Shown: positions 1 to 19,630, counted from the stretch's first letter. The stretch is 20,000 bases of DNA from an uncultured Gemmatimonadota bacterium (GCA_964490075.1 CAZBBK010000018.1:56345-76344); one strand, 5' to 3'. The notes: generated from the sequence alone by a model not told the origin. A program made the numbers and translations.

Positions 1-2
1 AC

Positions 3-2495: not shown

Positions 2496-2497
2496 TC

Positions 2498-3469
2498 ATG
2501 ACGCGACTCGACTCGCCGGCCGTGCTGCCGCTCTTGCTCCTGGTCTTGATCGGCGGCGCGCCCGCCGGCGCGATGATGTGCCGTGACCAGGTGGTCATCA
2601 ACGAGATCATGTTCGATCCCGCAGACGTTTTGGGAGACGACGAGGACTACGAGTGGGTGGAGCTGCACAACACCACCGGACACGCCGTCAGCCTCGCCGG
2701 CTGGCGTCTGAACCACGCACCCCTCGACGGCGAGATCCCTCCGCACGACTACGTCCTGGTGGCGCGCCAGGACCGCTCCGATCCCGACGGCGACGGCGAG
2801 TTCTTCTCGGCCTTCTACCACCCCGACAACGGCTATCAGATCAGCGCCCGAATCATCGATCTCGCCGGCCAGACGATGGGGCTCGATGGCGACGACTTCG
2901 AGCTGCGTCTCTTCGACGACCAGGACCAGGTGGTCGACTGGGCCGCGTTCCACCCGGCCCCGGGCGGTGACGGCGACGGCTCGACCCTGGAGCGGCTGGT
3001 CGCCCTGCACGGCGGCAGCGAGGCGGAGTTCCTGCCGAGCGAGCCTCCCGGGCGCCACGGCACACCAGAAGGTCAGAACAGCACCTCTCCCCTGACCGTC
3101 CACGTCTCGCTCCCCGACGCCCCAGTCGCCCCCGGCGACACGCTGCACATCGAGGAGATCATCACCAACCGAGATCGGATGGGGCATCGGGTGCGCATCT
3201 GGCGCGAGATCCTCACCCCCTCTCAGCGGCGCATCCCCTTCGAGCATCCGGATCTGCCCACCGAGGTCCACGTGCCGGGCTGCCACAGCCTGCGCCTCGA
3301 GGCGGACGTGGTGGTTCCGGCGCCCTCACCGCTGGGAGAGTTCGGCTACCACGGAATCATCGGCGACGGCTCGGAGTCGCTGGGATCGGACTGGGACGAG
3401 TTCATCGTGGAGTCGAGCGACCACATCGGCCCGCCGCCCGAAGAATTTCACGCAATCGTGAAATTCTGA
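2498..3469 (+). CDS. Secreted lamin-tail-domain (LTD) protein with C-terminal Ig-like domain, 323 aa
   Basis: Real part of the 881..3469 ORF: ATG at 2498 after AAGGAG and 2 nt after the upstream stop. Signal peptide (LPLLLLVLIGGAPAGA), LTD signature VVINEIMFDP...DYEWVELHNTT...VSLAGWRL and GTPEGQNS end motif. Confidence 0.85.
   Translation: MTRLDSPAVLPLLLLVLIGGAPAGAMMCRDQVVINEIMFDPADVLGDDEDYEWVELHNTTGHAVSLAGWRLNHAPLDGEIPPHDYVLVARQDRSDPDGDGEFFSAFYHPDNGYQISARIIDLAGQTMGLDGDDFELRLFDDQDQVVDWAAFHPAPGGDGDGSTLERLVALHGGSEAEFLPSEPPGRHGTPEGQNSTSPLTVHVSLPDAPVAPGDTLHIEEIITNRDRMGHRVRIWREILTPSQRRIPFEHPDLPTEVHVPGCHSLRLEADVVVPAPSPLGEFGYHGIIGDGSESLGSDWDEFIVESSDHIGPPPEEFHAIVKF
3442..3467. promoter_or_regulatory. 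Perfect 11-bp inverted repeat, candidate upstream activator sequence for an enhancer-binding protein
   Basis: AGAATTTCACG-caat-CGTGAAATTCT, AT-rich in GC-rich DNA, about 115-140 bp upstream of the predicted sigma54 start site. Confidence 0.65.
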
Positions 3470-3555
3470 GTCAAAGGGCGCAGTCACGGGGCGGAATCGG
3501 GCCTCCGCTCTCCGGTGTCTTCTCGGTTGTCGGCGCCCTGGCGCCGGCGCCGGCG

Positions 3556-3570
3556 CGGCACGCTTCGTGC
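3556..3570 (+). promoter_or_regulatory. Sigma54 (RpoN) -24/-12 promoter
   Basis: CGGCACGCTTCGTGC versus consensus TGGCACG-N4-TTGC, with exact GG-N10-GC spacing; intergenic and upstream of the 3754 gene; predicted +1 near 3582. Confidence 0.65.
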
Positions 3571-3753
3571 GCTTGGTTCGGGCATCACGAGCCCCTTCTC
3601 CGGCCGTCCCCGGTCGATCGCCCGCGGGAGCGGGCCGGCGGGAGCGGGCGCAACCGGGGGGCGCTCCGACCGGGTCGCCTTCCATCCCATCCTGCAAAAG
3701 GGCTTCGCGCGGAAACGACTTCCCATTTTGGCGCGAACCCAAAGGAGCCCGAG

Positions 3754-4146
3754 ATGTCCAAGATCCTCCTGGCCGCCGCCTGCGCCGCCGCTTTCCTCCT
3801 GCCCAGCACCGCCGGCGCCATGTGGCTCGATTGCGAGCTCACCGTGGATCCCGAGTGCGTCGCTCCCGGAGACGTGGTTGAGATCGAGGTCTGCGTCGAG
3901 AACCTGACCGACGACGACATGACCGTCGAGGGCACCCTCGAGGTGCACGCGCATCACGGCGACCACTACGAGCTGGCGGCCAAGACCGCCACCATCGCCC
4001 CCGGAGTCACCTGTCTCACCCTGCCCATGGCGGTTCCCGTCGGAACCGACGAGGACAGCTACGTGCTGGGCCTGTGGGTCTGGGAGGAATGGGAGCACAT
4101 GACTCACTGTGCGACCTGGTTAGAGGTTTCTGACGACTGTCTCTAA
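3754..4146 (+). CDS. Small secreted acidic Cys/His-rich protein, probable single Ig-like domain, 130 aa
   Basis: AAAGGAG ribosome-binding site at 3741-3747, signal peptide MSKILLAAACAAAFLLPSTAGA, GC-rich third codon positions, beta-strand pattern VAPGDVVEIEVCVEN, followed by a terminator. Confidence 0.85.
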   Translation: MSKILLAAACAAAFLLPSTAGAMWLDCELTVDPECVAPGDVVEIEVCVENLTDDDMTVEGTLEVHAHHGDHYELAAKTATIAPGVTCLTLPMAVPVGTDEDSYVLGLWVWEEWEHMTHCATWLEVSDDCL

Positions 4147-4173
4147 CCAAGCAGCGTCCGTCCGCGAAGGAGT

Positions 4174-4212
4174 GCCCATGGGCCGCCGCGTCGGTCCGTG
4201 GGCTCTCTTTTT
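4174..4212 (+). terminator. Rho-independent terminator after the 130-aa gene
   Basis: 12-bp stem GCCCATGGGCCG / CGGTCCGTGGGC (two G-U pairs), 6-nt loop, followed by TCTCTTTTT. Confidence 0.8.
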
Positions 4213-4338
4213 GTCGGGCGCCCGACCACGATTCCTGCGCTCCGCGGCGACCGATTGGATTGGAGCCCGCGCTCTCGACCGGAGACCGCTCGACCGCGGA
4301 TCCCAAGCGCCATCGATTCCGCATGAGGAAGCAGGATC

Positions 4339-5748
4339 ATGTCACGACAGCATTTCGTCTGCGCAGTTTCGCTGCTGCTCGCGGCCGTCGGCCGCGCCGA
4401 CACCGTACCCCAATTCACCCTGACCCAGATCGGCAACCTACCCGGTGGCACCAAGAGCTGGGCCTGGGATGTCACCCCCGACGGCGACGTCGTCGGCGAC
4501 GCGTCGACCATCGGCCACACCACACCGCATGCCTTCTACTGGGATGCGCTCACCACCACGCTGACCGATCTGGGAACCCTCACCGGTATTGCCGGCGACG
4601 AGAGCCGCGCCTACGGCGTCAGCTTCGACCAGTACACCGCGGGCAACTCCGACGCTCCCGGCACGACCGAGAAGAACGGCTTCATCTACCCGCCGCCCTT
4701 CGGTCCGCTGACGGCACTGGGGCCGCCTCCGGTAGGCTACCGTGATCCCAACGCCCAGGATGTCGAGCTGCTGGCCGGCGCCGGAGTGCACCGGGCAGTC
4801 GGCTGGGCGCTGGCGACCACTCCGGGATCCGAGCCGCACGCCGCTTACTGGGACTACGAGCTGGGCACCGCTCTCAGCCTTGGCACCCTGACCGGCAGCC
4901 CGGCCGACTGGAGCCGAGCCTTCGGTGTCAACGAGCTGGGCGAAATCGTCGGCTTCTCGACCCGGTCGGCGCAGCCGAGCCACGCCTTTCTCATGCGCGG
5001 CGGACAGATGATCGACATCGACCCGCGGCCGGATCCGAGCGAGAGCTTCGCGTGCGGGATCAACCGGGCGTCGCAGGTCGCGGGCAACCACTACAGCTCC
5101 TTCACCCTGCCGAGCACCGCCTGCCGCTTCGATGAGCGCCGCGGCGGATGGCAGCTCACCGACCTCGGCACCCTCGGCGGGATGGAGCCCCACTACTCCT
5201 ACGCCCACGATCTGAACGACGGCGCCTTGATCGTCGGCTGGTCGAACACCGACGAGAACGGACGAACGGCGACCATGTGGCTGAACGACCAGATCTACGA
5301 TCTGAACACATTGGTGCCGGGCGCCGAGCTCTACCTGAAGGAGGCGACCGGCGTGAATCTGGCCGGACAGATCGTCGGCTACGGAACCACCGGCGCCGGC
5401 TTCGAGCAGGCCTACCGGCTCGACCCGGCGACGCTGATGATGATGCAACCGGTGAGCGGCGATGCGGGCACCTCCAACCAGCTCTACGCGGTCGGTGCCA
5501 CGCCCGGAGTGCCGGTGCACTTCGTCTATGGCTTCACCGCCGGCAGCACGCCGGTGCCGGGTTGCGCAGGACTGGTGGTCGACATCGCCAGCCCGAAGAT
5601 CGTCGGGTCCGCGGTCGCCGATTCCCGCGGCATCGCCAATCTGTCGGCGGCGGTCCCGAGCAACGCCCTCGGGGTGACGGTGCTGATCCAGGCGGTGGAG
5701 CAACCGAGCTGCTTGGTCAGCAACCTGGTGAGCTACACATTTCAGTAG
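4339..5748 (+). CDS. Secreted HAF-repeat extracellular protein with a distinct C-terminal beta domain, 469 aa
   Basis: Signal peptide; repeated motifs HAFYWD...TDLGTLTG, HAAYWD...SLGTLTG, SRAFGVNELGEIVG, HAFLM, TDLGTLGG, AHDLNDGALIVG, YDLNTL, ATGVNLAGQIVGYG. Confidence 0.9.
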   Translation: MSRQHFVCAVSLLLAAVGRADTVPQFTLTQIGNLPGGTKSWAWDVTPDGDVVGDASTIGHTTPHAFYWDALTTTLTDLGTLTGIAGDESRAYGVSFDQYTAGNSDAPGTTEKNGFIYPPPFGPLTALGPPPVGYRDPNAQDVELLAGAGVHRAVGWALATTPGSEPHAAYWDYELGTALSLGTLTGSPADWSRAFGVNELGEIVGFSTRSAQPSHAFLMRGGQMIDIDPRPDPSESFACGINRASQVAGNHYSSFTLPSTACRFDERRGGWQLTDLGTLGGMEPHYSYAHDLNDGALIVGWSNTDENGRTATMWLNDQIYDLNTLVPGAELYLKEATGVNLAGQIVGYGTTGAGFEQAYRLDPATLMMMQPVSGDAGTSNQLYAVGATPGVPVHFVYGFTAGSTPVPGCAGLVVDIASPKIVGSAVADSRGIANLSAAVPSNALGVTVLIQAVEQPSCLVSNLVSYTFQ

Positions 5749-5779
5749 CGGCGCCACCAGAAAACGGAAATATGTGAAG

Positions 5780-5825
5780 CCCGGCGCCCCGGGCGCGGCC
5801 TCACGGGGTCGGCGTCCGGGGTTTT
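5780..5825 (+). terminator. Possible intrinsic terminator after the HAF-repeat gene
   Basis: CCCGG-CGCC (5780-5788) pairs with GGCG-T-CCGGG (5811-5820), followed by GTTTT; the stem is imperfect and the U-tract short. Confidence 0.45.
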
Positions 5826-6018
5826 CTCCATTGGCGGAGCGCCTTCCATGTAATCATCGATGGACAATACTCCCCCCCCGCAACCGCACCTTCCACCTCC
5901 CCGGTCACGACCCGCCATCGAGCTCGTGAATGCAGGGTGCGGATTCCGCTCTTCGACGTTTCAGGCGCCGTCGAGCGCGAGCTCGGTGCTGGGCCGTGGT
6001 CCAGAACTGGAGCTCCCC

Positions 6019-8613
6019 GTGCGCCAGGTCGTCCCCTCCCGCCGTCTTCTGTTCACCCTCGGTCTCGCAATGACGGCGCTCGCCCGGTCCACCGCCGCCG
6101 CCATTCCCGCCAAAGCCCTGGTCGGCTACTGGCATAACTGGGTCGGTCCTCCGGCCGAGATGCCGCTGTCCCAGGTGTCCGCCGACTACGACGTGGTGAA
6201 CATCGCCTTCGCGGAGGCCGGATCGTGGCTGGGCAGCGAAATGGTGTTCCGGCCCCATTCCCAGATCTATCCCGACTCGACCGACTTCATGGCCGACGTC
6301 GCAGCTCTGCAGGCGGCCGGCAAAACAGTGCTGATCTCGGTCGGTGGCGCCGCGTCGCCGGTCTACCTCGATACCAGCGCCGACGCCGACTCCTTCGTCA
6401 CCTCCATGACCGGCATCATCGAAAGTTACGGCTTCGACGGCATGGACATCGACTTCGAAGGACTGTCGCTCCTGCTGATGCCTGGAGACAGCGATTTCCG
6501 TGCTCCGACCAGTCCGCGCATCGTCAACCTCATCGACGCGGTGGGGCGTCTCTTGACTCACTTCGGGCCCGATTTCGTGCTCACCACCGCCCCGGAGACG
6601 ATGTTCGTGCAGGGTGGCTACGGCGCCTACGACAACTCCTGGGGCGCCTACCTGGCGCTGCTCCACGCCTTCCGCGATGACTGGACCTATGTGCACGTGC
6701 AGCACTACAACACCGGGTCGATGTACGGCCGCGACGGCAATATCTACCTGCCGCCGGAAGCAGACTTTCACGTCGCCATGGCCGACATGTTGCTGGCGGG
6801 TTTCGATGTCAACAAGTTCGTCAACCCGATCTTCTTCGAGCCGCTGCGAGCCGACCAGGTGATGATCGGTCTGCCGGCCTGCGCGCCGGCCACCGGCTCC
6901 GGCTACACCGCCCCGGCCGTGGTTCACCAGGCGCTCGACTACCTGGTGAAGGGACAGAGCTTCGGGGGCAGCTACCAGCTCTCCGACCCCGCCGGCTACG
7001 CCGGCTTCCGCGGCCTGATGACCTGGTCGATCAACTGGGATGCCGACTGCGGATTTGAGTTCTCGGGCGCCCACCGGCCCTACCTCGACGCTCTCGGCGG
7101 CGGCGGCTTGGAACTGTCGATCTCCGGCAATTTGAACAGCTACCAGCCGGGCGACACGGCCAGCCTGGCGCTACAGGTGAGCAACACTTCTCCTGATAGC
7201 CTGTCTCTGACCCGGGCGCTCTTCTGGGCCCAGAAGAGCCCCGACGTCGATTTCCAGCGCCTGATCTACGACGGAGCCCCGTACACCATAGCCGGCGGAG
7301 ACTCGGCCGCCGTGCTGCTCGAGCTGATCATTCCCGCGGCCGCTCCGCTCGGCTCCTACACCGCCGGCGCCACGATCTACGACGACGCATCCGAGCTCGA
7401 CAGCGAGAGCTTTCAGTTCCAGATGACCGGCGATCCGCCGGATGAGAAGCGAATCGTCGGCTACTACATCGAATGGGGTATCTACGCCCGCGACTATCAC
7501 CCGCTCGACATCCCGGCCGACAAGATCACCCACATCAACTACGCCTTCGCCAACATCGGAACCGACCTGGAGATCGAGGTCGGAGATGCCTATGCGGCGA
7601 TCGACAAATACTACCCTGGAGACAGTTGGCTAGATCCCTTTCGCGGCACCTACAAGCAGCTCAATATCGTCTTGAAGGAGCAGTACCCGCACCTCAAGAC
7701 CTTCATTTCGGTGGGCGGCTGGACCTGGTCCGGGCGTTTCTCCGACGCCGCCCTCACACCGCTGTCGCGCGCGACCTTCGCCGCCTCTTGCGTCGACTTC
7801 ATCCGTCAGTACAGCTTCGACGGAGTCGACATCGACTGGGAGTACCCGGTCTGTTGCGGCCTCCCGGACAACGTCTATCGCCCGGAGGACAAGCAGAACT
7901 ACACCCTGCTCATGGCCGAGCTCCGCCAACAGCTGGACCAGGCGGCGATCGAGGACGGACGTCCCTACCTGCTCACCATCGCCGGCCCCGCCGGCTACGA
8001 CAAGATGGAGAACTACGAGATGGCCGAGCTGGTCAGCCACCTCGATTGGATAAACCTCATGACCTACGACCTTCACGGGGCCTGGGATCTGTCGCAGACC
8101 AACCATCACTCCAAGCTGAGCCCGAGCCCCGACGACCCCAATCCCGACGAGCTGATCCGCACCCGCTACAACGTCGACTACGCGGTGCAAAGCTGGCTCG
8201 ACGCCGGCGTGCCGGCCGACAAGGTGGTGGTGGGAGTGCCTTTCTACGGGCGCGCCTGGGGCGGCGTTCCCAGCACCGACCTGGGACTCTATCAGCCGGC
8301 CACCGGCGTGCCGCCGGGAACCTGGGACGACTGGGCCTCCGGCGACACCGGCGTCAACGATTTCTTCGAGATCGAGACCTTCGAGCTGATGGGCGACTAC
8401 ACCAAGGGCTGGGACCCGCACTCCTCGGTGCCCTATCTCTACTCCCCCGATCGCCACGGCGGACATTTCATCGGCTACGACGACGCCCAATCGATCGGCA
8501 TCAAGGCCGATATGGTGCTCGACCAGGGCCTGGGCGGCATGATGTTCTGGGAGGTCACGGGGGACCGCAACGAGACCTTGATCGATGTGATCTACGGCAA
8601 ATTGGGGAACTGA
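6019..8613 (+). CDS. Secreted chitinase with two GH18 catalytic domains separated by an Ig-like domain
   Basis: Likely GTG start at 6019 (GGAG at 6009-6012) followed by signal peptide ...SRRLLFTLGLAMTALARSTAAA. Domain 1: LVGYWHNW, ISVGGA, FDGMDIDFE, HVQHYN, GLMTWSINWD. Domain 2: VGYYIEWGIYAR, THINYAF, ISVGGWTWS, FDGVDIDWEYP, MTYD, GMMFWE. The ORF track starts at 5860, but that extension looks non-coding. Confidence 0.95.
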   Translation: MRQVVPSRRLLFTLGLAMTALARSTAAAIPAKALVGYWHNWVGPPAEMPLSQVSADYDVVNIAFAEAGSWLGSEMVFRPHSQIYPDSTDFMADVAALQAAGKTVLISVGGAASPVYLDTSADADSFVTSMTGIIESYGFDGMDIDFEGLSLLLMPGDSDFRAPTSPRIVNLIDAVGRLLTHFGPDFVLTTAPETMFVQGGYGAYDNSWGAYLALLHAFRDDWTYVHVQHYNTGSMYGRDGNIYLPPEADFHVAMADMLLAGFDVNKFVNPIFFEPLRADQVMIGLPACAPATGSGYTAPAVVHQALDYLVKGQSFGGSYQLSDPAGYAGFRGLMTWSINWDADCGFEFSGAHRPYLDALGGGGLELSISGNLNSYQPGDTASLALQVSNTSPDSLSLTRALFWAQKSPDVDFQRLIYDGAPYTIAGGDSAAVLLELIIPAAAPLGSYTAGATIYDDASELDSESFQFQMTGDPPDEKRIVGYYIEWGIYARDYHPLDIPADKITHINYAFANIGTDLEIEVGDAYAAIDKYYPGDSWLDPFRGTYKQLNIVLKEQYPHLKTFISVGGWTWSGRFSDAALTPLSRATFAASCVDFIRQYSFDGVDIDWEYPVCCGLPDNVYRPEDKQNYTLLMAELRQQLDQAAIEDGRPYLLTIAGPAGYDKMENYEMAELVSHLDWINLMTYDLHGAWDLSQTNHHSKLSPSPDDPNPDELIRTRYNVDYAVQSWLDAGVPADKVVVGVPFYGRAWGGVPSTDLGLYQPATGVPPGTWDDWASGDTGVNDFFEIETFELMGDYTKGWDPHSSVPYLYSPDRHGGHFIGYDDAQSIGIKADMVLDQGLGGMMFWEVTGDRNETLIDVIYGKLGN

Positions 8614-8616
8614 GGG

Positions 8617-8724
8617 TCAACGCTCGAACCAGACGACACCGGTGCGCTCGATCTCTTCGATGAGCGCCCGGTCCTCTACGCGATCGAAGAGTACCAGGTC
8701 GACGCGTTGCGGCATCGAGAGTGC
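8617..8724 (-). pseudogene. C-terminal remnant resembling a minimal nucleotidyltransferase (MNT, HEPN/MNT antitoxin-like)
   Basis: ALSMPQRVDLVLFDRVEDRALIEEIERTGVVWFER* follows the typical MNT C-terminal pattern (xVDLV...L..EI.R.G...YE); no upstream GS...DxD catalytic motif in frame. Confidence 0.6.
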
Positions 8725-8750
8725 TGGAGGACGAAGCCCAGCCCCGCCCA

Positions 8751-8759
8751 TGCTAAACT
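8751..8759 (+). promoter_or_regulatory. Possible extended -10 promoter element for the aconitase-family gene
   Basis: TG-C-TAAACT matches TGnTAnnnT about 70 bp upstream of ATG 8826; no convincing -35 element. Confidence 0.35.
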
Positions 8760-8825
8760 CGGCGGTTCGCATCTCCCGCCGCGGCGGCCCGATCCATCGA
8801 AACCCACCAACCACGAGCCAGAGCG

Positions 8826-10823
8826 ATGACCCGGCATCCCATGACCCTGACCCAGAAGATCCTCGCGCACCACGCCATCGGCCTGGAGCGGCCCTGGGTG
8901 CAGGCGGGGGATTTTCTGCGCATTCGGGTCGATTGGACGATCGCCTCGGAGCTGGCCTGGAACGGCATGGATCGCACCTACACGCGGCTCGGGCGGCCGC
9001 CGATTCACAACGCCGAGCGCTTCTACCTGGCGATCGATCACACGGTCGATCCGATCACTCTGGCGGAAGATCCGACCGCCCAGCGACTGACCAAACTGTC
9101 GCGGGAGTTCGCGGCGGAGAGCGGGATTCGCCATTTCTACGACGCCAACCAGACCATCCTGCACACCAAGTTCTATCGCGACCTGCTGCAGCCCGGGGAG
9201 CTGGTGCTGGGGGCCGATTCGCACACCAGCTCGCACGGCGCCCTGGGGGCCTTCGCCATGGGGCTGGGCGGGGCCGACATCGCCGCGGCGATGGTGCTGG
9301 GCGAATCGTGGATCGAGGTGCCCGAGGCGATCGCGGTCGAGTTCAGGGGCACGGTGCCCTTCGGAATCAGCGGCAAGGAGATCATCCTGAAGACCCTCGG
9401 AGAGCTGGGGCGCAACACCCACGCGATGGGGCGCTCGGTGGAGTACCGCGGGGATGCGGCGGCCACCTTCAGCACCGACATGCGCTTCACGATCGCCAAC
9501 ATGACCGCCGAGTTCGGCGGGCTGAACGGCGTTTTCGAGGCCGATGAGCAGGTCGCCGAGTGGCTGGCGCTGCGCCAGGACCACAACTCCGCGGGCCGCT
9601 ACTTCCGCGCCGACGAGGAAGCCCCCTACGTCGAGCGCCATCGCATCGATCTGCACCGAGCCGAGCCGCTGCTGGCGCTGCCCTTCTCTCCCGACAACGT
9701 GGCGCCGGCGGCGGAGCACGCCGGTCGGGCACTGGACGGGGTCTTCATCGGCGCCTGCACCACCACCGAGGAAGAGCTGGTGCTCGGGGCGCTGGTGCTG
9801 GAAGGGCAGCTCGAGAATCGCAGGGCGGAGCCGGTGCCGGGCAAGCGCCTGGTGGTCCCGGGCAGCACCGAGATCGTGGAGCGGATGGAGCGCGGCGGGC
9901 TCCTGGAGATCTACCGCCGGGCCGGGTTCCGGGTCGGCCCGCCGGGCTGCTCGATGTGCCTGGGCGTGGCTTCGGACCGGGCCGAACGCGGCGAAGTCTG
10001 GCTCAGCTCGCAGAACCGCAACTTCCCCAACAGAATGGGGACCGGGTCGGAGGCCTGGCTCGCGTCGGCGGCCACGGTGGCGGCGTCGTCGCTGAAAATG
10101 GAAATCGGCGACCCGCGTCCCTTCCTGGCCGAGATCGACCGGGAGCGCTTCGAAAGGCTGCTCGATCGGCGGCCCTCGGAGCCGGTGAAGGTGTCGCGCT
10201 CCCAACCCGAGATCGACCTGGAGCCGGCGGCACCCGGCGAGAAGGGCGTGGTGCCGGCGCGGCAGACCGGCACATCCGGCGCCGAGACGATCCGCGGCCG
10301 GGTCCAGCGCTTCGGCGATCACGTCGACACCGACGCGATCATTCCGGGGGAATTCTGTCACTTGACCAGCATGGAGGAGCTCGGAGACGCCTGCTTCCGC
10401 CACGTGGCGCCGGGGTTCCGGGAGCGGGTCGAGGCCGGGGCGACGATCGTGGTGGCCGGCGAGGGCTGGGGCTCGGGCAGCTCGCGGGAGCAGGCGGTCT
10501 GGGCCTTGCAAGGGGCCGGGGTGCGGGCGGTGATCGCGCGCTCCTACGCCTTCATCCACCGCCGCAACCTGGTCAACGAGGCGCTGCCGCACCTGGTGCT
10601 GGACGACGAGCGCTTCTACGAGCTGGCCGGCGCGGGCGCGGAGCTGGCCATCGACCCGGAGCAGGGAATCGTCTGGCACCTGGAAAGCGGCGAGCGTTTC
10701 GAGGCGGTGGCTCCGGCGCCGATCGTGCGATCGCTGCGGGTCGCGGGCGGGGTCGTGCCGGCGATTCTGGAGCACGGGTCGCAGGTGTTCGGGGTGCTGC
10801 GAACCCTGGGGGTGGGGGGGTAG
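8826..10823 (+). CDS. Aconitase-superfamily [4Fe-4S] hydro-lyase, fused large and small subunit (isopropylmalate isomerase/homoaconitase-like), 665 aa
   Basis: MTLTQKIL start, DH, GADSHT, GACTT and GCSMCLG (three cluster cysteines), NRNF; C-terminal swivel domain VDTDAIIPG, GSGSSREQA, ARSYAFIHRRNLVN. Confidence 0.92.
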   Translation: MTRHPMTLTQKILAHHAIGLERPWVQAGDFLRIRVDWTIASELAWNGMDRTYTRLGRPPIHNAERFYLAIDHTVDPITLAEDPTAQRLTKLSREFAAESGIRHFYDANQTILHTKFYRDLLQPGELVLGADSHTSSHGALGAFAMGLGGADIAAAMVLGESWIEVPEAIAVEFRGTVPFGISGKEIILKTLGELGRNTHAMGRSVEYRGDAAATFSTDMRFTIANMTAEFGGLNGVFEADEQVAEWLALRQDHNSAGRYFRADEEAPYVERHRIDLHRAEPLLALPFSPDNVAPAAEHAGRALDGVFIGACTTTEEELVLGALVLEGQLENRRAEPVPGKRLVVPGSTEIVERMERGGLLEIYRRAGFRVGPPGCSMCLGVASDRAERGEVWLSSQNRNFPNRMGTGSEAWLASAATVAASSLKMEIGDPRPFLAEIDRERFERLLDRRPSEPVKVSRSQPEIDLEPAAPGEKGVVPARQTGTSGAETIRGRVQRFGDHVDTDAIIPGEFCHLTSMEELGDACFRHVAPGFRERVEAGATIVVAGEGWGSGSSREQAVWALQGAGVRAVIARSYAFIHRRNLVNEALPHLVLDDERFYELAGAGAELAIDPEQGIVWHLESGERFEAVAPAPIVRSLRVAGGVVPAILEHGSQVFGVLRTLGVGG

Positions 10824-10869
10824 GTGAACCGACCTCGCTCGATCCCTCGATGGAAGGCGGCATGTGGGG

Positions 10870-10961
10870 GCCTTCCCCGGTAGCGCCGGTGGACATGTCT
10901 CGCTATTCTGGTCTCGAACGCGCCCGAGGGCTCGCCCTCCCGCGCCTACGAGGATCCTCCA
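10870..10961 (+). repeat. Candidate degenerate CRISPR mini-array (repeat-like, 32 nt, repeat-like) upstream of cas3
   Basis: 10933-10961 CGCCCTCCCGCGCCTACGAGGATCCTCCA matches the array repeat at 19/29 positions ungapped. 10870-10900 GCCTTCCCCGGTAGCGCCGGTGGACATGTCT is a weaker repeat-like hairpin. They are separated by 32 nt. Confidence 0.3.
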
Positions 10962-10989
10962 CGAACAGACACGGCGATCGGGGCTCACC

Positions 10990-13647
10990 TTGAAGGGACA
11001 GCCAGCCACATACTGGGCCAAACTGACGATCAGGGACGGAGCGGTTGCCCGTTGGCATCCTCTGCTGGACCATTCCGCCGATGTGTGTGCGTGCACCGTG
11101 GTGCTGCTCGAGCAAGACGTGATTCGTCACCGACTGGCGCGATTGGGAGGTATCGAGGAACTGACGGGGGCGCAGTGCGCCCGCCTCGGCTGCTTCGCCG
11201 CATTGCACGACGTAGGGAAGTACAACACTGGCTTTCAGAATCGAGCCTGGTCCCACAGGCAGCCCCAGGCCGGGCATGTGAAAGAGGTGCTCGGCCTCTT
11301 TGGCGGAGGTCGGAACGGCCGGCGTCTGGCCGAAGCGCTCGGTTTCGAGGAGCTCTCGTCTTGGGGCAGCGGTGAAACAGCCGGGCGCTGCCTGATCGCC
11401 GCGTTTTCGCATCACGGCTGACCCGGGCTGGCGGGAGAGAGGGTTCAGACGGGGACCTGGAAGCCCGGTCCCTTCGGTGATCCTTTCGCCGGAATTGAGC
11501 AGCTCGGCGCGGCGGTTCGAGAGTGGTTGCCGTTGGCGTTCCAGAGCGATGGCGCACCGCTGCCGACCCGACCGGAGTTTCACCACGCCTTCAGCGGTCT
11601 GGTCATGCTCGCGGACTGGATCGGCTCGGACGAGCGCTTCTTTCCCTATGCCGAGGAGGGTGATTCTCCGCGGTTGCCGTGGGCAATGGTGCGGGGACGG
11701 CGCGCGTGCGAACAAATCGGGATCGGAGCGGGCGGATTTCGTGCCGGGCTGGACGCAGCGCCACCGAGCTTCAATGCCCTCTTCGGCTTTCCGCCGCGCG
11801 GTCCGCAGATCGCCATCGCGCAACTCGCCGTGCCAGGCCGCGGAGGGGTCGTGACCCTCGAGGCTGAGACTGGGGCCGGCAAGACAGAGGCCGCGCTCGA
11901 CCGGTTCGTCAGGCTTTTCCACTCCGGTAGAGTCGACGGAATGTACTTCGCCTTGCCGACCCGAACCGCGGCCACACAGCTCCACGGGCGCGTGGTTCGC
12001 GCGATTGAGCGGGCCTTTCCCGATCCCGAGCGCCGTCCCCCGGTCGTTCTGGCGGTGCCTGGCTACCTGGTCGTCGACGAGACCGAAGGTCGCCACCTGC
12101 CCGGATTCCAGGTGCTCTGGAACGATAGCGAAACCGACCGCTGGCGTTACCGCGGCTGGGCCGCCGAGCATCCCAAGCGCTACCTGGCAGGTACCGTCGT
12201 GGTTGGGACGATCGACCAGGTTCTGTTGTCGGGGTTGCAGGTCAGTCACGCCCACCTCCGTTCCACGGCTCTCAGCCGGCACCTGCTGGTCATCGACGAG
12301 GTCCACGCGTCCGACACGTACATGAACCGTATTCTCGAGCATGTGCTGGAGCGCCACCTCGCCGCCGGGGGACATGCGTTGCTAATGTCGGCAACCCTGG
12401 GCGCGGTGGCCCGCGCGAGATTGACCCAGCCGGGCGTCGCGCCTGGGGCACCCTCACTCGAGCAAGCTCGAGATGCGCCCTTTCCGCTGGTCACCTCGTG
12501 CCCGGCAGGCGGCTCACCGAGCCAGATGGCCGCGACTCCGAGCTCGTTAGCCAAGCGGGTTACCGTGGAGCTCTGCACGCTCGAAGAGCCAGCAGCCGAG
12601 CTGGCGAAGAAAGCGCTCGACGCGGCGCGAGCCGGTGCGCGGGTCCTGATCGTACGCAACACGGTGACTTCTTGCGTTTCCACGCAACAGCACCTGGAGG
12701 CAGCGGCCCGAGACCTGGCGTTGGATGGAGTGTTGTTCCAGTGCAAGGGCGTGGCGGCGCCCCATCACTCACGGTACGCCCGTGAGGATCGAGCGTTGTT
12801 GGACGCTGCCTTGGAGCTCCGATTCGGGTCGAGCACTACCGAAGGACATGGCTGCGTGACCGTCGCCACACAGACCCTCCAGCAAAGCCTCGACATCGAT
12901 GGCGATCTACTCATTACCGATCTCTGCCCGATGGACGTGCTGCTCCAGCGCATCGGGCGGCTGCATCGCCACGGCACACGCATCCGCCCCCGGCGCGTCC
13001 AGAATCCGCGCGTGATCTTGGTGCTTCCTCATGAGCGCAATCTGGGCCTGCTGATCGATCGCTCGGGCGAGGCGCGCGCGCCGCAAGCCGCGCCAAACTC
13101 CGGGCCCGGGATCGGATCCGTGTACGAGGATCTACTGATCCTGGAGGCCACCTGGCGTTGCCTCGAGCAGTACTCGACGATCGAAATCCCGGCAATGAAC
13201 CGGGACCTGGTGGAGCGCACCACACATCCTGAACGCCTCTCCGCTATTGCAGAAGAGCTCGGCGGGAGCTGGGAGGCACACCTCGGTGCCACCCAAGGAA
13301 TCGCCGCCGCTCATCGACGCCACGCCGAGCTGAATCTCGTGCGCTGGGATGAGCCGATCGGCGACCAGGAAGCCACCTTTCCCACCAGGCAGCATCCGCG
13401 CAGAATCCCGACTCGGCTGGGCGAGGCGGATCGCCTGCTCCATTTCGACGCGCCGGCGCCCAGTCCGTTCGGGTGTCCCATCCAGCAACTGACGATTCCG
13501 GCGTTCATGGCACGGGGCATTCCAAACGACCCACCGCCGACGGCGCCGACACGCGCGGCGAACGGCGAGCTCGAGTTCACCTCTGGATCCAATCACTACC
13601 GCTACGACCGATTCGGTCTGCGACTCCGTGATAGCGGCGCCGAGTAA
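10990..13647 (+). pseudogene. cas3: Type I-E Cas3 (HD nuclease plus SF2 helicase) interrupted by an in-frame TGA at 11419-11421
   Basis: ORFs 10864..11421 and 11527..13647 share a frame with a single stop between them. HD motifs YWAK, HSADV, LHDVGK, SHHG*P, then LADWIGS; helicase motifs AETGAGKTE, DEVH, SAT, HHSRY, ATQTLQQSLDID, QRIGRLHRH. Start placed at TTG 10990 (uncertain). Confidence 0.92.
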
Positions 13648-13659
13648 GGAGAACCGCGG

Positions 13660-15228
13660 ATGACTGATTTGCTCCACGACCTTCTGGATGATGAGATCAT
13701 CGGCGTGCGCCCCGCGCCAGACATCCGCAATCGGCTCGCGCTGCCTGGCGTTCTAGAAGCCCTAGGGCGCACTGAGTTGTACGCCTTCACGGCCCTTCAG
13801 GCCCATCAAGAGCACGCTTGGTACACCTTCTTGGTCCAGCTTGCCGCGATCGCATTGGAGAAGAACAAGGAGCCTCTGGGCTCTTGGCCAGATGCTCCGG
13901 CGTGGCGATCGTTGTTGCTGGACTTGGTATGTGGCGACCGAAGGCCTTGGTGTCTGCTGGTGAAGGACCTGTCGCATCCAGCTTTCATGCAGCCAGCAGT
14001 GCCGGAGCGTTCGTTGGACGGCTTCAAGACGGTCAGTTACCCCGATGGGCTCGACGTGCTCATCACGGCGAAGGACCACGACGTGAAGCACAGCCGAATT
14101 GGGAGACCACTCCCAGAGCACTGGATCTACGCCCTGATAACACTGCAGACTACGCAGGGTTTTCTCGGCAAGGGCAACTACGGCATCGCGCGGATGAACG
14201 GCGGCTTCGCCTCACGCCCATGGGTGGGCTACTCACCCGGCGTCGGATGGCCGGAGAGGTTTCAACGCGACGTGAGTGTCCTGCGGCGATCTCGGAGTCA
14301 GTTGCTGCGCGACTACGGCTACGCCGATCGTGATGGCCTCGCTCTGGTGTGGCTGAAACCGTGGGACGGGAGCGACTCGGAACCACTGGAGCGCTGCGAT
14401 CCCTTGTTTGTCGAAATCTGTCGCCGCGTTCGTTTCGAGGGGGGCGAAGAGCGACTCTGGGCGCGCACCCGCGGTACGTCGGGCCAGCGGCTCCTCGCCA
14501 AGGAACGCAAGGGGGATGTAGGCGATCCATGGACCCCGGTCAGCAAGGCCGAGGGCGCGGCTCTGACGGCAGGCTCTGCGGGCTTCTCCTACAAGCTGAC
14601 GCAGGAGCTGCTCTTCTCGGGTGATTGGGCACCAGGGATCTCGCAGCAAATTCAAAGAGACGACCCAGAACGGCTTCTTTTCTGCGCGGCGGTCCTGGTT
14701 CGTGGCCAGGGCAAGACCGACGGCCTTCGGAAACGACTTCTGCCCTTGCCACCCAGAGTCCGGGCGATACTCGGGAGCTCGCAAGACCGCGCGACACTTG
14801 AGACTCGGGCCAAGCGTCGAGTGGACGACTCCGCCATCGCCTGGAGGAGAATCCTGCGCCCGGCACTTCTGGTCCTGCTGCAGGCGGCGCCGGACAAGCT
14901 CGATTTCACCGACGACAGATCCAGGTCCTGGCTCGAGAAGTTCGACACCATGGTGGATCAGATCTTCTTCGATCACCTCTGGAGGACCGTTGAGCGCGTC
15001 GATCCCGACCCTGCATCGGAGGAGGCCGAGGCCCGGGAGGATGAGCACGCTGTTAGTTGGCAACGAGAGCTGGTCGGAATCGCTCAAAGTCTTCTCGAGG
15101 ACGCAATGCAGTCCATTCCCTTGCCGGCGGCACGTCGATACCGAGCCCTCGCGGCCGCCGAACGGGTCTTTCGCGGTAGCGCGATCAAACACTTTCATGA
15201 TGCGATGCAGAAGGAGATGGCGACATGA
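13660..15228 (+). CDS. cas8e: Type I-E Cascade large subunit Cas8e (Cse1/CasA)
   Basis: Position after cas3, AAGGAG ribosome-binding site, 522 aa, motifs AFMQP, GFLGKGNYGIARMNGG, FVEICRRVRF, GDPWTP, RGQGKTDG. Confidence 0.88.
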   Translation: MTDLLHDLLDDEIIGVRPAPDIRNRLALPGVLEALGRTELYAFTALQAHQEHAWYTFLVQLAAIALEKNKEPLGSWPDAPAWRSLLLDLVCGDRRPWCLLVKDLSHPAFMQPAVPERSLDGFKTVSYPDGLDVLITAKDHDVKHSRIGRPLPEHWIYALITLQTTQGFLGKGNYGIARMNGGFASRPWVGYSPGVGWPERFQRDVSVLRRSRSQLLRDYGYADRDGLALVWLKPWDGSDSEPLERCDPLFVEICRRVRFEGGEERLWARTRGTSGQRLLAKERKGDVGDPWTPVSKAEGAALTAGSAGFSYKLTQELLFSGDWAPGISQQIQRDDPERLLFCAAVLVRGQGKTDGLRKRLLPLPPRVRAILGSSQDRATLETRAKRRVDDSAIAWRRILRPALLVLLQAAPDKLDFTDDRSRSWLEKFDTMVDQIFFDHLWRTVERVDPDPASEEAEAREDEHAVSWQRELVGIAQSLLEDAMQSIPLPAARRYRALAAAERVFRGSAIKHFHDAMQKEMAT

Positions 15229-15803
15229 GCGATACGGACACACCGCAGGCGCTCGCGAACGGCAGCGATGCGCGGACGAGCGACTTCCCGAGCCTTGGCA
15301 AGGTCGTGAACAGGCTCGCGGGAGCTCTGGAGCGCGAGACGACACCCGGCGATCTCGCGGCTCTGCGCCGTCTCGATCCGGACGACCCGTCGAATCCGGC
15401 GTTTTGGCGTATAGTTGTTGGCCATCTTGTTCCAGTGGGAGCGCTCTCCGAAGAGCGCCGCGACCGTGATCAGGCGGAGGCATGCTGGGCGGCACTGCTC
15501 TCCGGAATGGCGCAGATGCACGGGCTGCACGTGCCGGGCAGACGACTGGGACGGGCGCTGGCGGCCGCAGGGCTCTCGGAGCTGCGTTTCGTCCGCCTAT
15601 TGCGCGCCCGAGAACGCCAACTACTCTCCGAGGTGAGAACCGCGGCACGTTACCTGGCCGCGAGAGCGGAGCCGGTCGATTGGGTCGATTTCGCTCGACT
15701 CGTACTCAGTCACGACACCAAGCGCGCCGAGTCGGTCCGACGGGGTATCGCTCGTGATTACTACTCGGCTCAGGAAGCCAGTCCAACGAAGGAAAAGTCA
15801 TGA
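15225..15803 (+). CDS. cas11: Type I-E Cascade small subunit Cas11 (Cse2/CasB)
   Basis: ATGA overlap with cas8e; GDLAALRR, LGRAL, SELRFVRLL, VDW, IARDYY motifs; 192 aa. Confidence 0.92.
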   Translation: MSDTDTPQALANGSDARTSDFPSLGKVVNRLAGALERETTPGDLAALRRLDPDDPSNPAFWRIVVGHLVPVGALSEERRDRDQAEACWAALLSGMAQMHGLHVPGRRLGRALAAAGLSELRFVRLLRARERQLLSEVRTAARYLAARAEPVDWVDFARLVLSHDTKRAESVRRGIARDYYSAQEASPTKEKS

Positions 15804-16993
15804 CGAAGTTCATCCAGCTCCACTATTTGACCTCCTATCCCGCCGCCCTGCTGAATCGTGACGATGCGGGTTTCGCCAAGCGCATCCCCTTCGGAGGAGC
15901 GACCCGGACCCGGATCTCGTCCCAGTGCCAGAAGCGACACTGGCGGACATTCGAAGGAGAGCATTCTCTACGCGAGATCAACATTTCGATGTCGATCCGC
16001 TCCCGTCGCACCTTCGAACGATTCGTGCTGGCGCCATTGCTCGAGGACGGGGTGGCGCAGGAGCTGGCCGATGCAGTCACCGAGGGCTTGATGGCCCTGA
16101 CACTGGGGGAATCGGCCAAGGCGAAGAAGAGCAAGGAGGAAAGCGTTGCACCGACCGCAAGGACTGGACAGATCACGGTACTCGGCCGGCCTGAGCTCGA
16201 CTATCTGCTCAGAGAGGCGCGTGAGCTCTGCGCAGCGGTGGATTCTCCAAAGCAGGCGCGGGAGGCTCTCAAGAAATGGCCGAAGGAGAAGAGGGACAAT
16301 CTGAAGACACTGCGAAACGGCGCGGGTCTCGACGCAGCGCTCTTTGGCCGCATGGTGACGAGCGATATTCTCGCCAGAGGAGACGCTGCAATCCACGTCG
16401 CGCATGCCTTCACAGTGCACGCGGAGGCCGCCGAGAGTGACTATTTCTCCGCGGTCGATGACCTTCTGCAAGACAATGCCGAAGAGGAAGCGCTCGGCAG
16501 CGGTCACATCGGCTCGGTGGAGCTGACATCGGGCCTGTTTTATGGCTACACGGTGATCGACGTGCCCCTCCTGGTCTCGAATCTCGAAGGCTGTGCCCGG
16601 GAGGATTGGCGCGATGCCGACCCATCCACCTCAGTCGAAGTGATCGAGCGTCTCGTGCACCTCATTGCCACCGTGTCGCCCGGAGCCAAGTTGGGATCGA
16701 CGGCTCCCTATTCCTATGCCCACTTGGTGTTCGCCGAAGGGGGATCCGCGCAGCCGAGAACGCTCGCCAATGCCTTCATGAACCCGGTCCGCGACCGTAG
16801 CGATCTGCTCAAGAGCACGTACAACGCACTCGGCTCGTATGTCGCTTCGCTGGACCGGATGTATGGTGTTGAGACGCGACGCGTGCTGGCTGCGATCGAT
16901 TCCGGAGCAGATCTAATCGATCGGCTCGACGTCGAGTCGTCAGGTGCACTCGCGGAACTGGCCCGTACCACCGCGGGCTGGGTCAGGGAGTAG
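15800..16993 (+). CDS. cas7: Type I-E Cascade backbone Cas7 (Cse4/CasC)
   Basis: FIQLHYLTSYPAALLNRDDAGFAK, RTRISSQCQKRHWR, ALFGRM, VAHAFTVH, DYFSAVDDL, PRTLANAF. Confidence 0.96.
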   Translation: MTKFIQLHYLTSYPAALLNRDDAGFAKRIPFGGATRTRISSQCQKRHWRTFEGEHSLREINISMSIRSRRTFERFVLAPLLEDGVAQELADAVTEGLMALTLGESAKAKKSKEESVAPTARTGQITVLGRPELDYLLREARELCAAVDSPKQAREALKKWPKEKRDNLKTLRNGAGLDAALFGRMVTSDILARGDAAIHVAHAFTVHAEAAESDYFSAVDDLLQDNAEEEALGSGHIGSVELTSGLFYGYTVIDVPLLVSNLEGCAREDWRDADPSTSVEVIERLVHLIATVSPGAKLGSTAPYSYAHLVFAEGGSAQPRTLANAFMNPVRDRSDLLKSTYNALGSYVASLDRMYGVETRRVLAAIDSGADLIDRLDVESSGALAELARTTAGWVRE

Positions 16994-16997
16994 CGAC

Positions 16998-17735
16998 ATG
17001 GAAGTTCTGCTCCTTCGATTGCAGGCGCCGATGATGAGCTTCGGTGGTCCACTCGTGGACCAGCGAGGCGTGATCCAGGACTACCCGGCCCTTTCGATGC
17101 TCACCGGGCTCTTGGGCAACGCACTTGGCTACCACCACCGCGACGCGGAGAGGTTGAACAGTCTGCAAGATAGAATCCGCTACGCGGCGCGCTGCGATCG
17201 ACCGGGGCGGTGTATCTCGGACTACCAGACCGTCGATCTCGGACAGGACTTCTTGCGCGACAGCGGTTGGACGTCGCGAGGCCGGCCGGAGCCCAGATAC
17301 GGAGACGCCAAGAACAAGGTAGGAACTCACATTCGCCACCGTCAGTACTTGGCCGACGCCGCCTACACACTGGCGCTCGCCCTGAAACCCGCCGATGCGG
17401 ACCCGAGCCTCGATTCTCTGGAAAGCGCGCTGGCGCAACCCGCGCGGCCTTTGTTCCTGGGGAGAAAATGTTGTCTGCCAGCCGCCCCCGTCATTCTGGG
17501 TCGGCGAATCGCGGGATCCTTGCGATCTGTCCTGTCAACGGAACCTCGTTGGTCGGGGACCGAAGTTCCGGGTCCCCTGCGAGCTTGGTGGCCGGGCGAA
17601 GAGGACGAAGCCTCCCAACGGTCGAGCTCGGTTCCCGTCACCGACGAACGCGATTGGCGCAATCAGATCGTTGTGGGTCGTCGTCTCGTTCGCAAAGGGC
17701 TCGTAGATCCGCCGGAGGCCCGAGATGAGCAGTAG
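16998..17735 (+). CDS. cas5: Type I-E Cas5 (CasD)
   Basis: ATG 16998 after GGGAG; LLLRLQAPMMSFG, GLLGNALG, DYQTVDL, RQYLADA, LFLGRKCCLP. Confidence 0.95.
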   Translation: MEVLLLRLQAPMMSFGGPLVDQRGVIQDYPALSMLTGLLGNALGYHHRDAERLNSLQDRIRYAARCDRPGRCISDYQTVDLGQDFLRDSGWTSRGRPEPRYGDAKNKVGTHIRHRQYLADAAYTLALALKPADADPSLDSLESALAQPARPLFLGRKCCLPAAPVILGRRIAGSLRSVLSTEPRWSGTEVPGPLRAWWPGEEDEASQRSSSVPVTDERDWRNQIVVGRRLVRKGLVDPPEARDEQ

Positions 17736-18477
17736 GACAGCTCCACTGTGGATGATCCGTTGCGAGCTGGAGACACCAAGGCTGCTGGCTCTTGCTCGGC
17801 GGCGCAAGCTCCCGCCCAGGCAGGGCGACATGGGGTACGTGGTTCATTGTGCCCTGGGAGAGCTGTTCGGAAGAGACGCCCCTCAGCCCTTCGCCCACAT
17901 CGGCCAAAGGGGGCGGCATTCGTCTGTTCTCGCCTACGCGCAGAAGGAACCCGAGGCGCTGCAAGCGTACGCGGATGCCTTCGCAGATCCCTCACTGCAC
18001 ACCATGGTCGACTGGTCGCGCTTCGATGCCAGGCAGATGCCGGTCTTCTGGCCGGTGGGACATCGCCTCGGATTTCGATTGCGATGCTGCCCGGTCCAAC
18101 GGATGCACGCGAAGGGGGACTACCACCGCAGGGGGGCGGAAGTGGATGTGTTCGTCGCAAGGTGCTGGAAGGCGGGCGACTCGGCCACTGCGGTGAAGCG
18201 CGAGGAACTCTATTGCCAGTGGCTGGCAACTCAGATCAAGCGCTACGGCGGTGCCCGGCTGATCGATGCGGAGCTCGGCGCATTTCAGCGCGAATGTCTT
18301 GTTCGGCGTACCCAGGGCGGCGACAGAAAATCCGCTATCTGCGAACGCCCCGATGCGCTCATGGGCGGCACCCTCGAGGTCACCGATTCGAGTGCCTTCA
18401 CCGCGTTGCTCAGGCGCGGCATCGGGCGCCACCGCGCCTTCGGCTTTGGAATGTTGCTGCTGCGTCCCGCGGACTGA
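17725..18477 (+). CDS. cas6e: Type I-E crRNA-processing endoribonuclease Cas6e (Cse3/CasE)
   Basis: C-terminal glycine-rich loop GIGRHRAFGFGMLLL, GTLEVTD, N-terminal GYVVH; lies between cas5 and cas1. Confidence 0.95.
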   Translation: MSSRTAPLWMIRCELETPRLLALARRRKLPPRQGDMGYVVHCALGELFGRDAPQPFAHIGQRGRHSSVLAYAQKEPEALQAYADAFADPSLHTMVDWSRFDARQMPVFWPVGHRLGFRLRCCPVQRMHAKGDYHRRGAEVDVFVARCWKAGDSATAVKREELYCQWLATQIKRYGGARLIDAELGAFQRECLVRRTQGGDRKSAICERPDALMGGTLEVTDSSAFTALLRRGIGRHRAFGFGMLLLRPAD

Positions 18478-18480
18478 TTC

Positions 18481-19362
18481 ATGTTGCTCGGAAGACTTGG
18501 ACTGGAGACCGCACGCATCCCGCAGGCGGATCGGCACGGGCTGCTGTGGCTCTCACGCGGGAAGCTCTACGTCGAAGACGGGACACTGCGCTTCAAGACC
18601 GCTGGCGGCGAGCTCGAGGCGGGCGACTACGCCATTCCCTTTCAGATGCTCACCAACATCTTGCTCGGCCCAGGAGGATCTGTGACACACGATGCGCTGC
18701 GGCTGTTGGCGCGTCACGGTACCGGATTGATCGCCGTGGGCGAGGGGGGGGGGAAGATGTACGCCTCGATGCCCTTCGGCAAGGACGATTCGGCGCTGGC
18801 GCGCAAACAGGTCCGACTTTGGAGCGACGAGCAAGGGGCCCGAATGGATGTAGCGAGGCGAATGTACGCCTGGCGGTTGGGGGAAATCCTGCCGCAGAGC
18901 GATATCGCGGTGCTGCGAGGCATCGAGGGATCCAGGATGAAGGAGACCTATCGCCTGCTCGCGCAGCAGCATGGGGTTCTCTGGAAGGGGCGGCGCTACG
19001 ATCGCTCCAACCCCAGCGGCGACGACCTTCCCAATCAGGCGATCAACCACTCGGCTGCGGCAGTCCAGGCATCAGCAATGATCGCCGTGGCCGCCACGGG
19101 GACGATTCCGCAGTTGGGCTTCATCCATGAGGACTCTTCGCGCGCGTTCTGTCTCGACGTAGCGGATCTGTTTCGAGACGAGATCACATTGCCAGTGGCC
19201 TTCGCCGCGAGTCGCCTGGCCATGGATGGTCACGAATTGGAGATGGAGAGGCTCGTTCGGCGGACCGCCGCAAAGTCGTTTCGAGAGAAGAAGCTGATTC
19301 CGAACATGATCCGCAGGATCAAGGAGTTGCTCGATGGCGATGACGGTGATCGTGACGCGTGA
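18481..19362 (+). CDS. cas1: Type I-E Cas1 integrase
   Basis: ILLGPGGSVTHDA, LRGIEGSRMK, WKGRRYD, NQAIN, LGFIHE, LDVADLF with the catalytic E/H/D residues present. Confidence 0.97.
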   Translation: MLLGRLGLETARIPQADRHGLLWLSRGKLYVEDGTLRFKTAGGELEAGDYAIPFQMLTNILLGPGGSVTHDALRLLARHGTGLIAVGEGGGKMYASMPFGKDDSALARKQVRLWSDEQGARMDVARRMYAWRLGEILPQSDIAVLRGIEGSRMKETYRLLAQQHGVLWKGRRYDRSNPSGDDLPNQAINHSAAAVQASAMIAVAATGTIPQLGFIHEDSSRAFCLDVADLFRDEITLPVAFAASRLAMDGHELEMERLVRRTAAKSFREKKLIPNMIRRIKELLDGDDGDRDA

Positions 19363-19630
19363 TGTCGCTCCACGGTTCGCGGGCTTTCTGACCTCGTGCA
19401 TGCTGGAGATCGCTCCGGGGGTATTCACCGGCCCGCGCATGACCAATTCGGTGCGAGAGAGGGTCTGGGCGGTGCTGGAGGAATGGTTCGCCACGCTCGG
19501 GGGCGGGAGCATCGTGATGACCTGGCTGGACACGGCCGCCCCCGGGGGCCAGAGCATTCGTGTGCTGGGGTTGCCGCGCAGAGAGCTGCAGGAGATCGAT
19601 GGCATGCTGCTTCTGCGAAAACAAGTTTGA
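19334..19630 (+). CDS. cas2: Type I-E Cas2
   Basis: MTVIVTRDVAPRFAGFL...LEIAPGVF...RERVW...DGMLL; AAGGAG at 19321-19326; overlaps the cas1 end. Alternative start at 19340. Confidence 0.95.
   Translation: MAMTVIVTRDVAPRFAGFLTSCMLEIAPGVFTGPRMTNSVRERVWAVLEEWFATLGGGSIVMTWLDTAAPGGQSIRVLGLPRRELQEIDGMLLLRKQV

Follow-up and report, generated by a model that had tools for sequence, protein, structure and literature searches.

The window is the whole stretch of DNA that was analysed, 20,000 nucleotides corresponding to C18:56345-76344 in the draft genome of an uncultured Gemmatimonadota bacterium (5.7 Mb, 136 contigs, 68% G+C, 95% estimated completeness). It carries a type I-E CRISPR-Cas locus in which the cas3 frame is broken once, by an in-frame TGA, and is followed by the genes for Cascade, Cas1 and Cas2 and a CRISPR array. 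The features of the locus are as follows.

10990-13647, plus strand: type I-E cas3, HD nuclease, SF2 helicase and C-terminal domain, frame broken once
10990-11418, plus strand: N-terminal HD fragment, 143 aa, with the His, HD, His and HH ligand motifs
11419-11421, plus strand: in-frame TGA, codon 144 of about 885 counted from TTG 10990; base 11419 is T/A polymorphic in the sampled population
11422-13647, plus strand: part of cas3 after the stop, with LADW, Walker A GAGKT, DEVH and the C-terminal domain
13660-15228, plus strand: cse1/casA, TIGR02547, 81 bits (cut-off 70.05), profile 1-502 of 504
15225-15803, plus strand: cse2/casB, TIGR02548, 70.2 bits (cut-off 28.5)
15800-16993, plus strand: cas7e/casC, TIGR01869, 277.6 bits, profile 1-325 of 325
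16944-17735, plus strand: cas5e/casD, TIGR01868, 172 bits, match from residue 21
17725-18477, plus strand: cas6e/casE, TIGR01907, 48 bits (cut-off 45.2)
18481-19362, plus strand: cas1e, TIGR03638, 290.4 bits
19334-19630, plus strand: cas2e, TIGR01873, 84.2 bits
19728-20000, plus strand: CRISPR array, 61-nt period, five repeats and four spacers, the contig ending in the fifth repeat

The seven genes from cse1 to cas2e all score above their curated NCBIfam cut-offs with near-complete profile coverage, and the true start of cas5e is probably some 20 codons further in. An earlier note on this DNA had described Cascade, cas1, cas2 and the array as intact in appearance. This description holds for the seven genes and the array, although the array is only partly assembled. 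Three more I-E repeats and two spacers lie at the end of contig C69 (31866-32015, minus strand), indicating that the middle of the array is missing between C18 and C69.

The cas operon (10990-19630) has a G+C content of 64% versus 68% upstream (1-10800). Additionally, an I-E cas3 orthologue was absent from the 40 other genomes searched, three of the same family and one of the same class; four of these 40 gave helicase-motif matches of 17-24 bits only. The lower G+C of the operon, together with the lack of an orthologue in the other genomes, suggests horizontal transfer, and the locus was probably acquired in this way. Upstream of it lie genes for a GAF-domain sigma-54 activator (93-2495), a 917-aa GH18 (chitinase-family) protein (5860-8613) and an aconitase-family protein (8826-10823), all of which appear unrelated to the CRISPR locus. 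A scan of 10700-13800 for sigma-70 promoters returned no sites, and the four terminator-like sites in the same interval were unremarkable.

The cas3 frame and its homologues

The TGA at 11419-11421 lies in the context TCG CAT CAC GGC TGA CCC GGG. Translation of 10864-13647 reads AAFSHHG, the stop, and then PGLAGERVQTGTWKPGPFGDPFAGIEQLGAAVREWLP, and the only further stop in this frame is the TAA at 13645-13647. TTG 10990 is the likely start of the gene because the N-termini of the homologues align there and the 143-aa fragment P0127 begins there. Upstream of the stop are the HD (11206-11211) and HH (11410-11415) motifs, and downstream of it are the Asp codon of LADW (11614-11616), GAGKT (11872-11886) and DEVH (12295-12306).

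For comparison with known families, the cas3 frame was translated with the stop read as X, giving the read-through product P0001. The Pfam profile Cas3_HD matches P0001 once, with 98.5 bits over residues 51-260 (profile 1-207 of 207), and this single match thus crosses the stop. P0001 also matches Pfam DEAD and Cas3-like_C_2 (PF22590, 90.3 bits). Among the NCBIfam profiles, cas3_core scores 153.8 bits (cut-off 102.45), cas3_HD is slightly below its cut-off (42.3 versus 43.45 bits), and PRK09694, the equivalog for the E. coli-type Cas3, reaches 292.8 bits, below its cut-off of 569. Judged by sequence, P0001 is a distant branch of the Cas3 family.

A homologue search returned 5879 proteins at E <= 0.001, of which 120 were listed. 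Among the matches listed, the full-length homologues are 865-1052 aa long and share 48-63% identity over 95% of their length, and the nearest relatives are metagenome proteins labelled Myxococcota and Binatia. The profile matches and these homologues support the identification of the gene as type I-E cas3 in the earlier note, and the translation and the Cas3_HD match likewise support its placement of an in-frame TGA in the HD domain followed by an open frame to 13647.

The comparison with the closest homologues that the note had proposed was made by aligning P0001 with 25 full-length proteins of 49-63% identity (26 rows). In this alignment, the residues invariant upstream of the stop are H70, H115, D116, K119, H138, H183 and H184 (P0001 numbering), and those invariant downstream are D251 of LADW, G337-T341 of GAGKT and D478-H481 of DEVH. 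The HD metal ligands H, HD, H, HH and D are therefore all conserved (H70, H115-D116, H138, H183-H184 and D251). Immediately around the stop, H183, H184, G185 and P187 are invariant, and the stop column itself holds R in 20, K in four and Q in one of the 25 homologues. The motif HHGRP, which the earlier note had given as frequent in Cas3 HD domains, is thus borne out for these relatives. It does not extend to the solved structures, where the residue after HHG is F (4q2c) or T (4qqw and 6c66), indicating that Arg is typical of the clade of P0001 and not of all Cas3 proteins.

A lone stop within a frame that is conserved in homologues is not a chance open-reading-frame artefact. No second lesion was found in cas3; 11422-13647 is open and all the helicase motifs are invariant. 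Moreover, the stop interrupts the HD fold itself and leaves the final metal ligand, D251, on its far side, so that the arrangement is not a cas3''/cas3' split, as the earlier note had argued from the position of LADW.

Two alleles at base 11419

Positions 10400-14000 of the window were compared with four runs, X1 to X4, of one marine-metagenome study. The comparison used assembled contigs, which carry no allele frequencies. Over these 3.6 kb, the only difference in the four runs is base 11419.

Run X1 (possibly the source of the window): T at 11419, depth 9.59, 9815-nt contig with no differences
Run X2: A at 11419, depth 5.56, 650-nt contig covering 11363-12012
Run X3: T at 11419, depth 5.3, a neighbouring contig stopping exactly at 11418
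Run X4: site 11419 outside its contigs

The A of run X2 turns the codon into AGA, which encodes Arg, the commonest residue among the homologues. The sense frame of one polypeptide is broken by TGA in the window, and the intact allele is seen in run X2 only, on one short contig whose depth of 5.56 is just above the value of 5 below which error is possible. The end of the X3 contig at 11418 is what a branch in the assembly graph would give, which is no more than a hint. Support for the two alleles is not fully independent, since a single study supplied all four runs and the window itself may derive from X1. Nevertheless, the chance that a random error would hit just this base and restore the consensus residue is very small, so that both alleles are read as real. 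A single differing base, T in X1 and X3 versus A in X2, indicates a segregating nonsense allele. The earlier note had considered the event recent, and the lack of any further difference in 3.6 kb across the runs fits this view.

The stop allele also recurs in protein collections. N-terminal fragments ending in SHHG (P0127, P0155 and P0156) have lengths of 143 aa (ENA), 107 aa (four JGI/IMG contigs) and 185 aa (one Logan/ENA contig). C-terminal pieces of 100% identity from JGI/IMG, NCBI/ENA and Logan/ENA all start past the stop (706, 704, 680 and 706 aa, plus two fragments cut by contig ends). No full-length protein of 100% identity was found among the 5879 homologue matches, the best full-length one listed having 63%. 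Nor was there a protein fragment with Arg at the site among 28 matches at E <= 1e-20, of which the sole one with 100% identity was the truncated P0127. An exact 29-mer scan of metagenome_contigs, a collection that may lack near-identical records, gave no matches.

In X2, X3 and X4, but not in X1, there are contigs that follow the window as far as 11397 and continue in one shared, unrelated sequence; one X4 contig joins the window at 11450. These contigs may reflect another organism that shares a short stretch with the window, or a structural variant lying 22 nt before the stop.

Probable loss of interference and competing readings

Based on the current evidence, the TGA is most likely a genuine, young and still segregating nonsense mutation in the I-E cas3 by which interference has been lost, a reading to which we assign a probability of about 80%. 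A stop of this sort is a loss of function of an already known kind. Some cells of the population would carry TGA at this codon and others AGA. Translation in the TGA carriers would end after 143 residues, leaving little or no helicase. The fragment would retain four of the five HD metal-ligand motifs but neither the last Asp nor any of the helicase, and a Cas3 capable of nicking and unwinding targets would therefore not be made. Both I-E interference, that is, the degradation of targets, and primed adaptation would then be lost in these cells. Cascade, Cas1-Cas2 and the array are still encoded and, from what is known of I-E systems, targets could still be bound through the crRNA without being cut, and spacers could still be taken up by naive adaptation. 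The gap between cas3 and cse1 is just 12 nt, so failure to translate 2.2 kb of cas3 may also reduce the expression of Cascade by transcriptional polarity.

The earlier note had proposed that an intact second cas3 would speak for normal interference. Two other intact cas3 genes do exist in the genome. They belong, however, to I-B and I-G loci, and the objection therefore applies only formally. Over the whole genome, cas3_core gives 10 matches, two of them above its cut-off. The type I-B locus on contig C78 encodes cas8b, cas7b, cas5b, an intact cas3 (784 aa), cas1, cas2 and cas4, and its array of 37-nt repeats is broken by the contig end with one spacer assembled. This locus (L009, G000:C78:8000-23408, at 6304-15409) looks complete. 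The type I-G locus on contig C37 encodes cas7g, csb2 and an intact cas3g (1055 aa, 567.7 bits; cut-off 400), and its cas8g/csx17 lies in two frames, with profile positions 111-186 in one and 216-700 in another. The cas8g gene is at about 9011-11090 of L010 (G000:C37:36000-53456), and the shift falls between about 9467 and 9570; the split reflects either an indel in the consensus or damage to a second cas gene of this genome. Since the contacts with the large Cascade subunit by which Cas3 is recruited are specific to each subtype, the I-B and I-G Cas3 proteins would not be expected to stand in for the I-E one. The two additional loci may nonetheless lower the cost of losing I-E interference.

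Selection might keep the TGA if it allowed cells to tolerate a spacer that targets the host or a prophage, or if Cascade repressed genes without cutting in the manner of CRISPRi. The intactness of Cascade, cas1-cas2 and the array is in keeping with such a role, and variation over the 3.6 kb is confined to the very base that turns Cas3 off. Inactivation of cas genes as a consequence of self-targeting spacers has been proposed in print (PMC7708048, citing Stern et al. 2010). When the spacers were searched against the host genome, as the earlier note had suggested, however, the six assembled I-E spacers and the one I-B spacer had no match outside the arrays. The longest off-array matches were 16 nt when exact and 21 nt with two mismatches. 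The arrays are incomplete at contig ends, the middle of the I-E array being unassembled, so the search covered only part of the spacers. In addition, the coupling of the stop to cse1 at 12 nt might reduce the expression of Cascade, and one polymorphic site cannot part selection from drift. Maintenance of the TGA by selection is thus unlikely.

It is quite doubtful that selection maintains the T/A site as an on/off switch, as opposed to a passing lesion, with a Cas3-off TGA and a Cas3-on AGA both kept in the population. If this were true, Cascade in TGA cells would bind without cutting, and these cells would tolerate spacers matching the host or a prophage, or take up mobile DNA. The earlier note had derived the stop from a CGA by a single transition, and this derivation is not supported, since the sole intact allele seen is AGA, which requires an A/T transversion. 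Of the 293 Arg codons in the cas operon, 21 are AGA and 50 are CGA, and a crude set of long open frames from the whole genome has 1074 AGA and 5205 CGA among 67240. Because AGA is rare among Arg codons, it could be either ancestral or a pseudo-revertant, and it might have arisen in the latter way from an earlier CGA>TGA mutation.

With respect to how the TGA is read, an alternative genetic code was ruled out because TGA is the stop of seven neighbouring genes (cse1, cse2, cas6e, cas1, cas2, the GH18 gene and the sigma-54 activator gene). Selenocysteine at the stop was rejected as well. No SECIS-like fold was seen, the 62 nt from the stop having z = +0.75 with 153 of 200 shuffles folding at least as well; Rfam gave no match in 10700-11900 at E <= 1; and Cys occurs at the stop column in none of the 25 homologues. 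A tRNA-SeC(tca) gene is present at G000:C3:54953-55049, so selenocysteine is probably used by this organism at some site other than the stop in cas3.

Decoding of the UGA as Sec or, by a near-cognate tRNA, as Trp, whether programmed or as tolerated readthrough, often enough to give a working full-length Cas3, has the tRNA-SeC gene in its favour but is very improbable. UGA followed by C is a weak terminator context in E. coli, by common account the weakest. In the same organism, Trp-tRNATrp competes with RF2 during UGA readthrough, as described in PMC10570021. Given this competition and the UGA-C context, a trace of full-length Cas3 with Trp at the site might arise from low-level readthrough. 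Against a working level of such product, the tRNA-Trp anticodon stem is ordinary (5 bp), TGA terminates the neighbouring genes and does so before C in cse2, the homologues have R, K or Q and never Cys at the site, the fold and Rfam results offer no recoding signal, and a sense Arg codon is also present in the population.

A functional split Cas3 would need reinitiation at TTG 11527 or ATG 11605, yielding a helicase protein that acts alone or with the 143-aa fragment. The frame after the stop is fully open and has every helicase motif, and gene callers predict proteins of 706, 704 and 680 aa from it. These three callers, however, choose three different starts, and reading of the sequence reveals no convincing ribosome-binding site, that is, no Shine-Dalgarno-like sequence at a usable distance, before either codon. 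The break also separates HH from the last Asp ligand within the HD fold, whereas known split forms part a complete HD protein from the helicase. It is therefore hardly credible that a functional split Cas3 is made in this way.

Finally, the suggestion in the earlier note of a sequencing or assembly error, with Arg as the true codon and T as a mistake of the consensus, draws on the draft state of the genome, the A of run X2 and the apparent frameshift in the I-G cas8g, which could hint at consensus errors, but it has very little probability because T recurs in several assemblies, namely in contigs of X1 (depth 9.59) and X3 (depth 5.3) and in stop-ending fragments on four JGI/IMG, one Logan/ENA and one ENA contigs, and because an identical full-length protein is lacking among the 5879 matches, where the next best listed has 63%.

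The nonsense mutation in cas3 therefore remains the preferred reading. Type I CRISPR systems are known to lose interference through point mutations that inactivate cas3, and the stop described here reveals no new mechanism. Its added value is modest and lies in the presence of both codons, stop and intact, in samples from a single marine population, in a host that has two more type I loci, one with a frameshifted cas8g. The two codons form a natural allele pair with which the frequency and the causes of interference loss could be studied.

Comparison with known systems

The read-through product resembles the type I-E Cas3 proteins of Thermobaculum terrenum (4q2c) and Thermobifida fusca (4qqw and 6c66), which likewise combine HD, SF2 helicase and C-terminal domains in one frame. 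P0001 matches 4q2c with 207.5 bits over residues 46-815 and 4qqw with 111 bits. The operon order cse1-cse2-cas7-cas5-cas6e-cas1-cas2 and the array with a 61-nt period are also those of type I-E systems, whose arrays have repeats of about 29 nt. In contrast to the solved I-E Cas3 proteins, the codon after HHG is TGA in the window, where those proteins have F or T and the clade of the window has R or K.

As in split cas3''/cas3' genes, two consecutive open frames together cover the HD and helicase domains. Unlike in these genes, the break lies inside the HD domain, the last Asp is on the helicase side, and the second frame has no start signal of its own. A parallel can also be drawn to Cas3-less or nuclease-dead Cascade, as in CRISPR-associated transposons and engineered CRISPRi, because the Cascade of TGA carriers could bind targets without cutting them. 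No transposon genes were seen adjoining the I-E locus. It differs from Cas3-less Cascade in that cas1-cas2 are present and in that the loss is one polymorphic point mutation, not a fixed architecture.

The closest parallel in kind is found in Salmonella, where PMC7712790 describes an I-E cas3 with a premature stop and contiguous cas genes in serovar Montevideo-STM and subsp. arizonae. The type of inactivation is the same as in these degenerate cas3 genes, while the phylum and the habitat differ. Unlike in the Salmonella case, the stop and sense alleles here both occur in environmental samples of one population.
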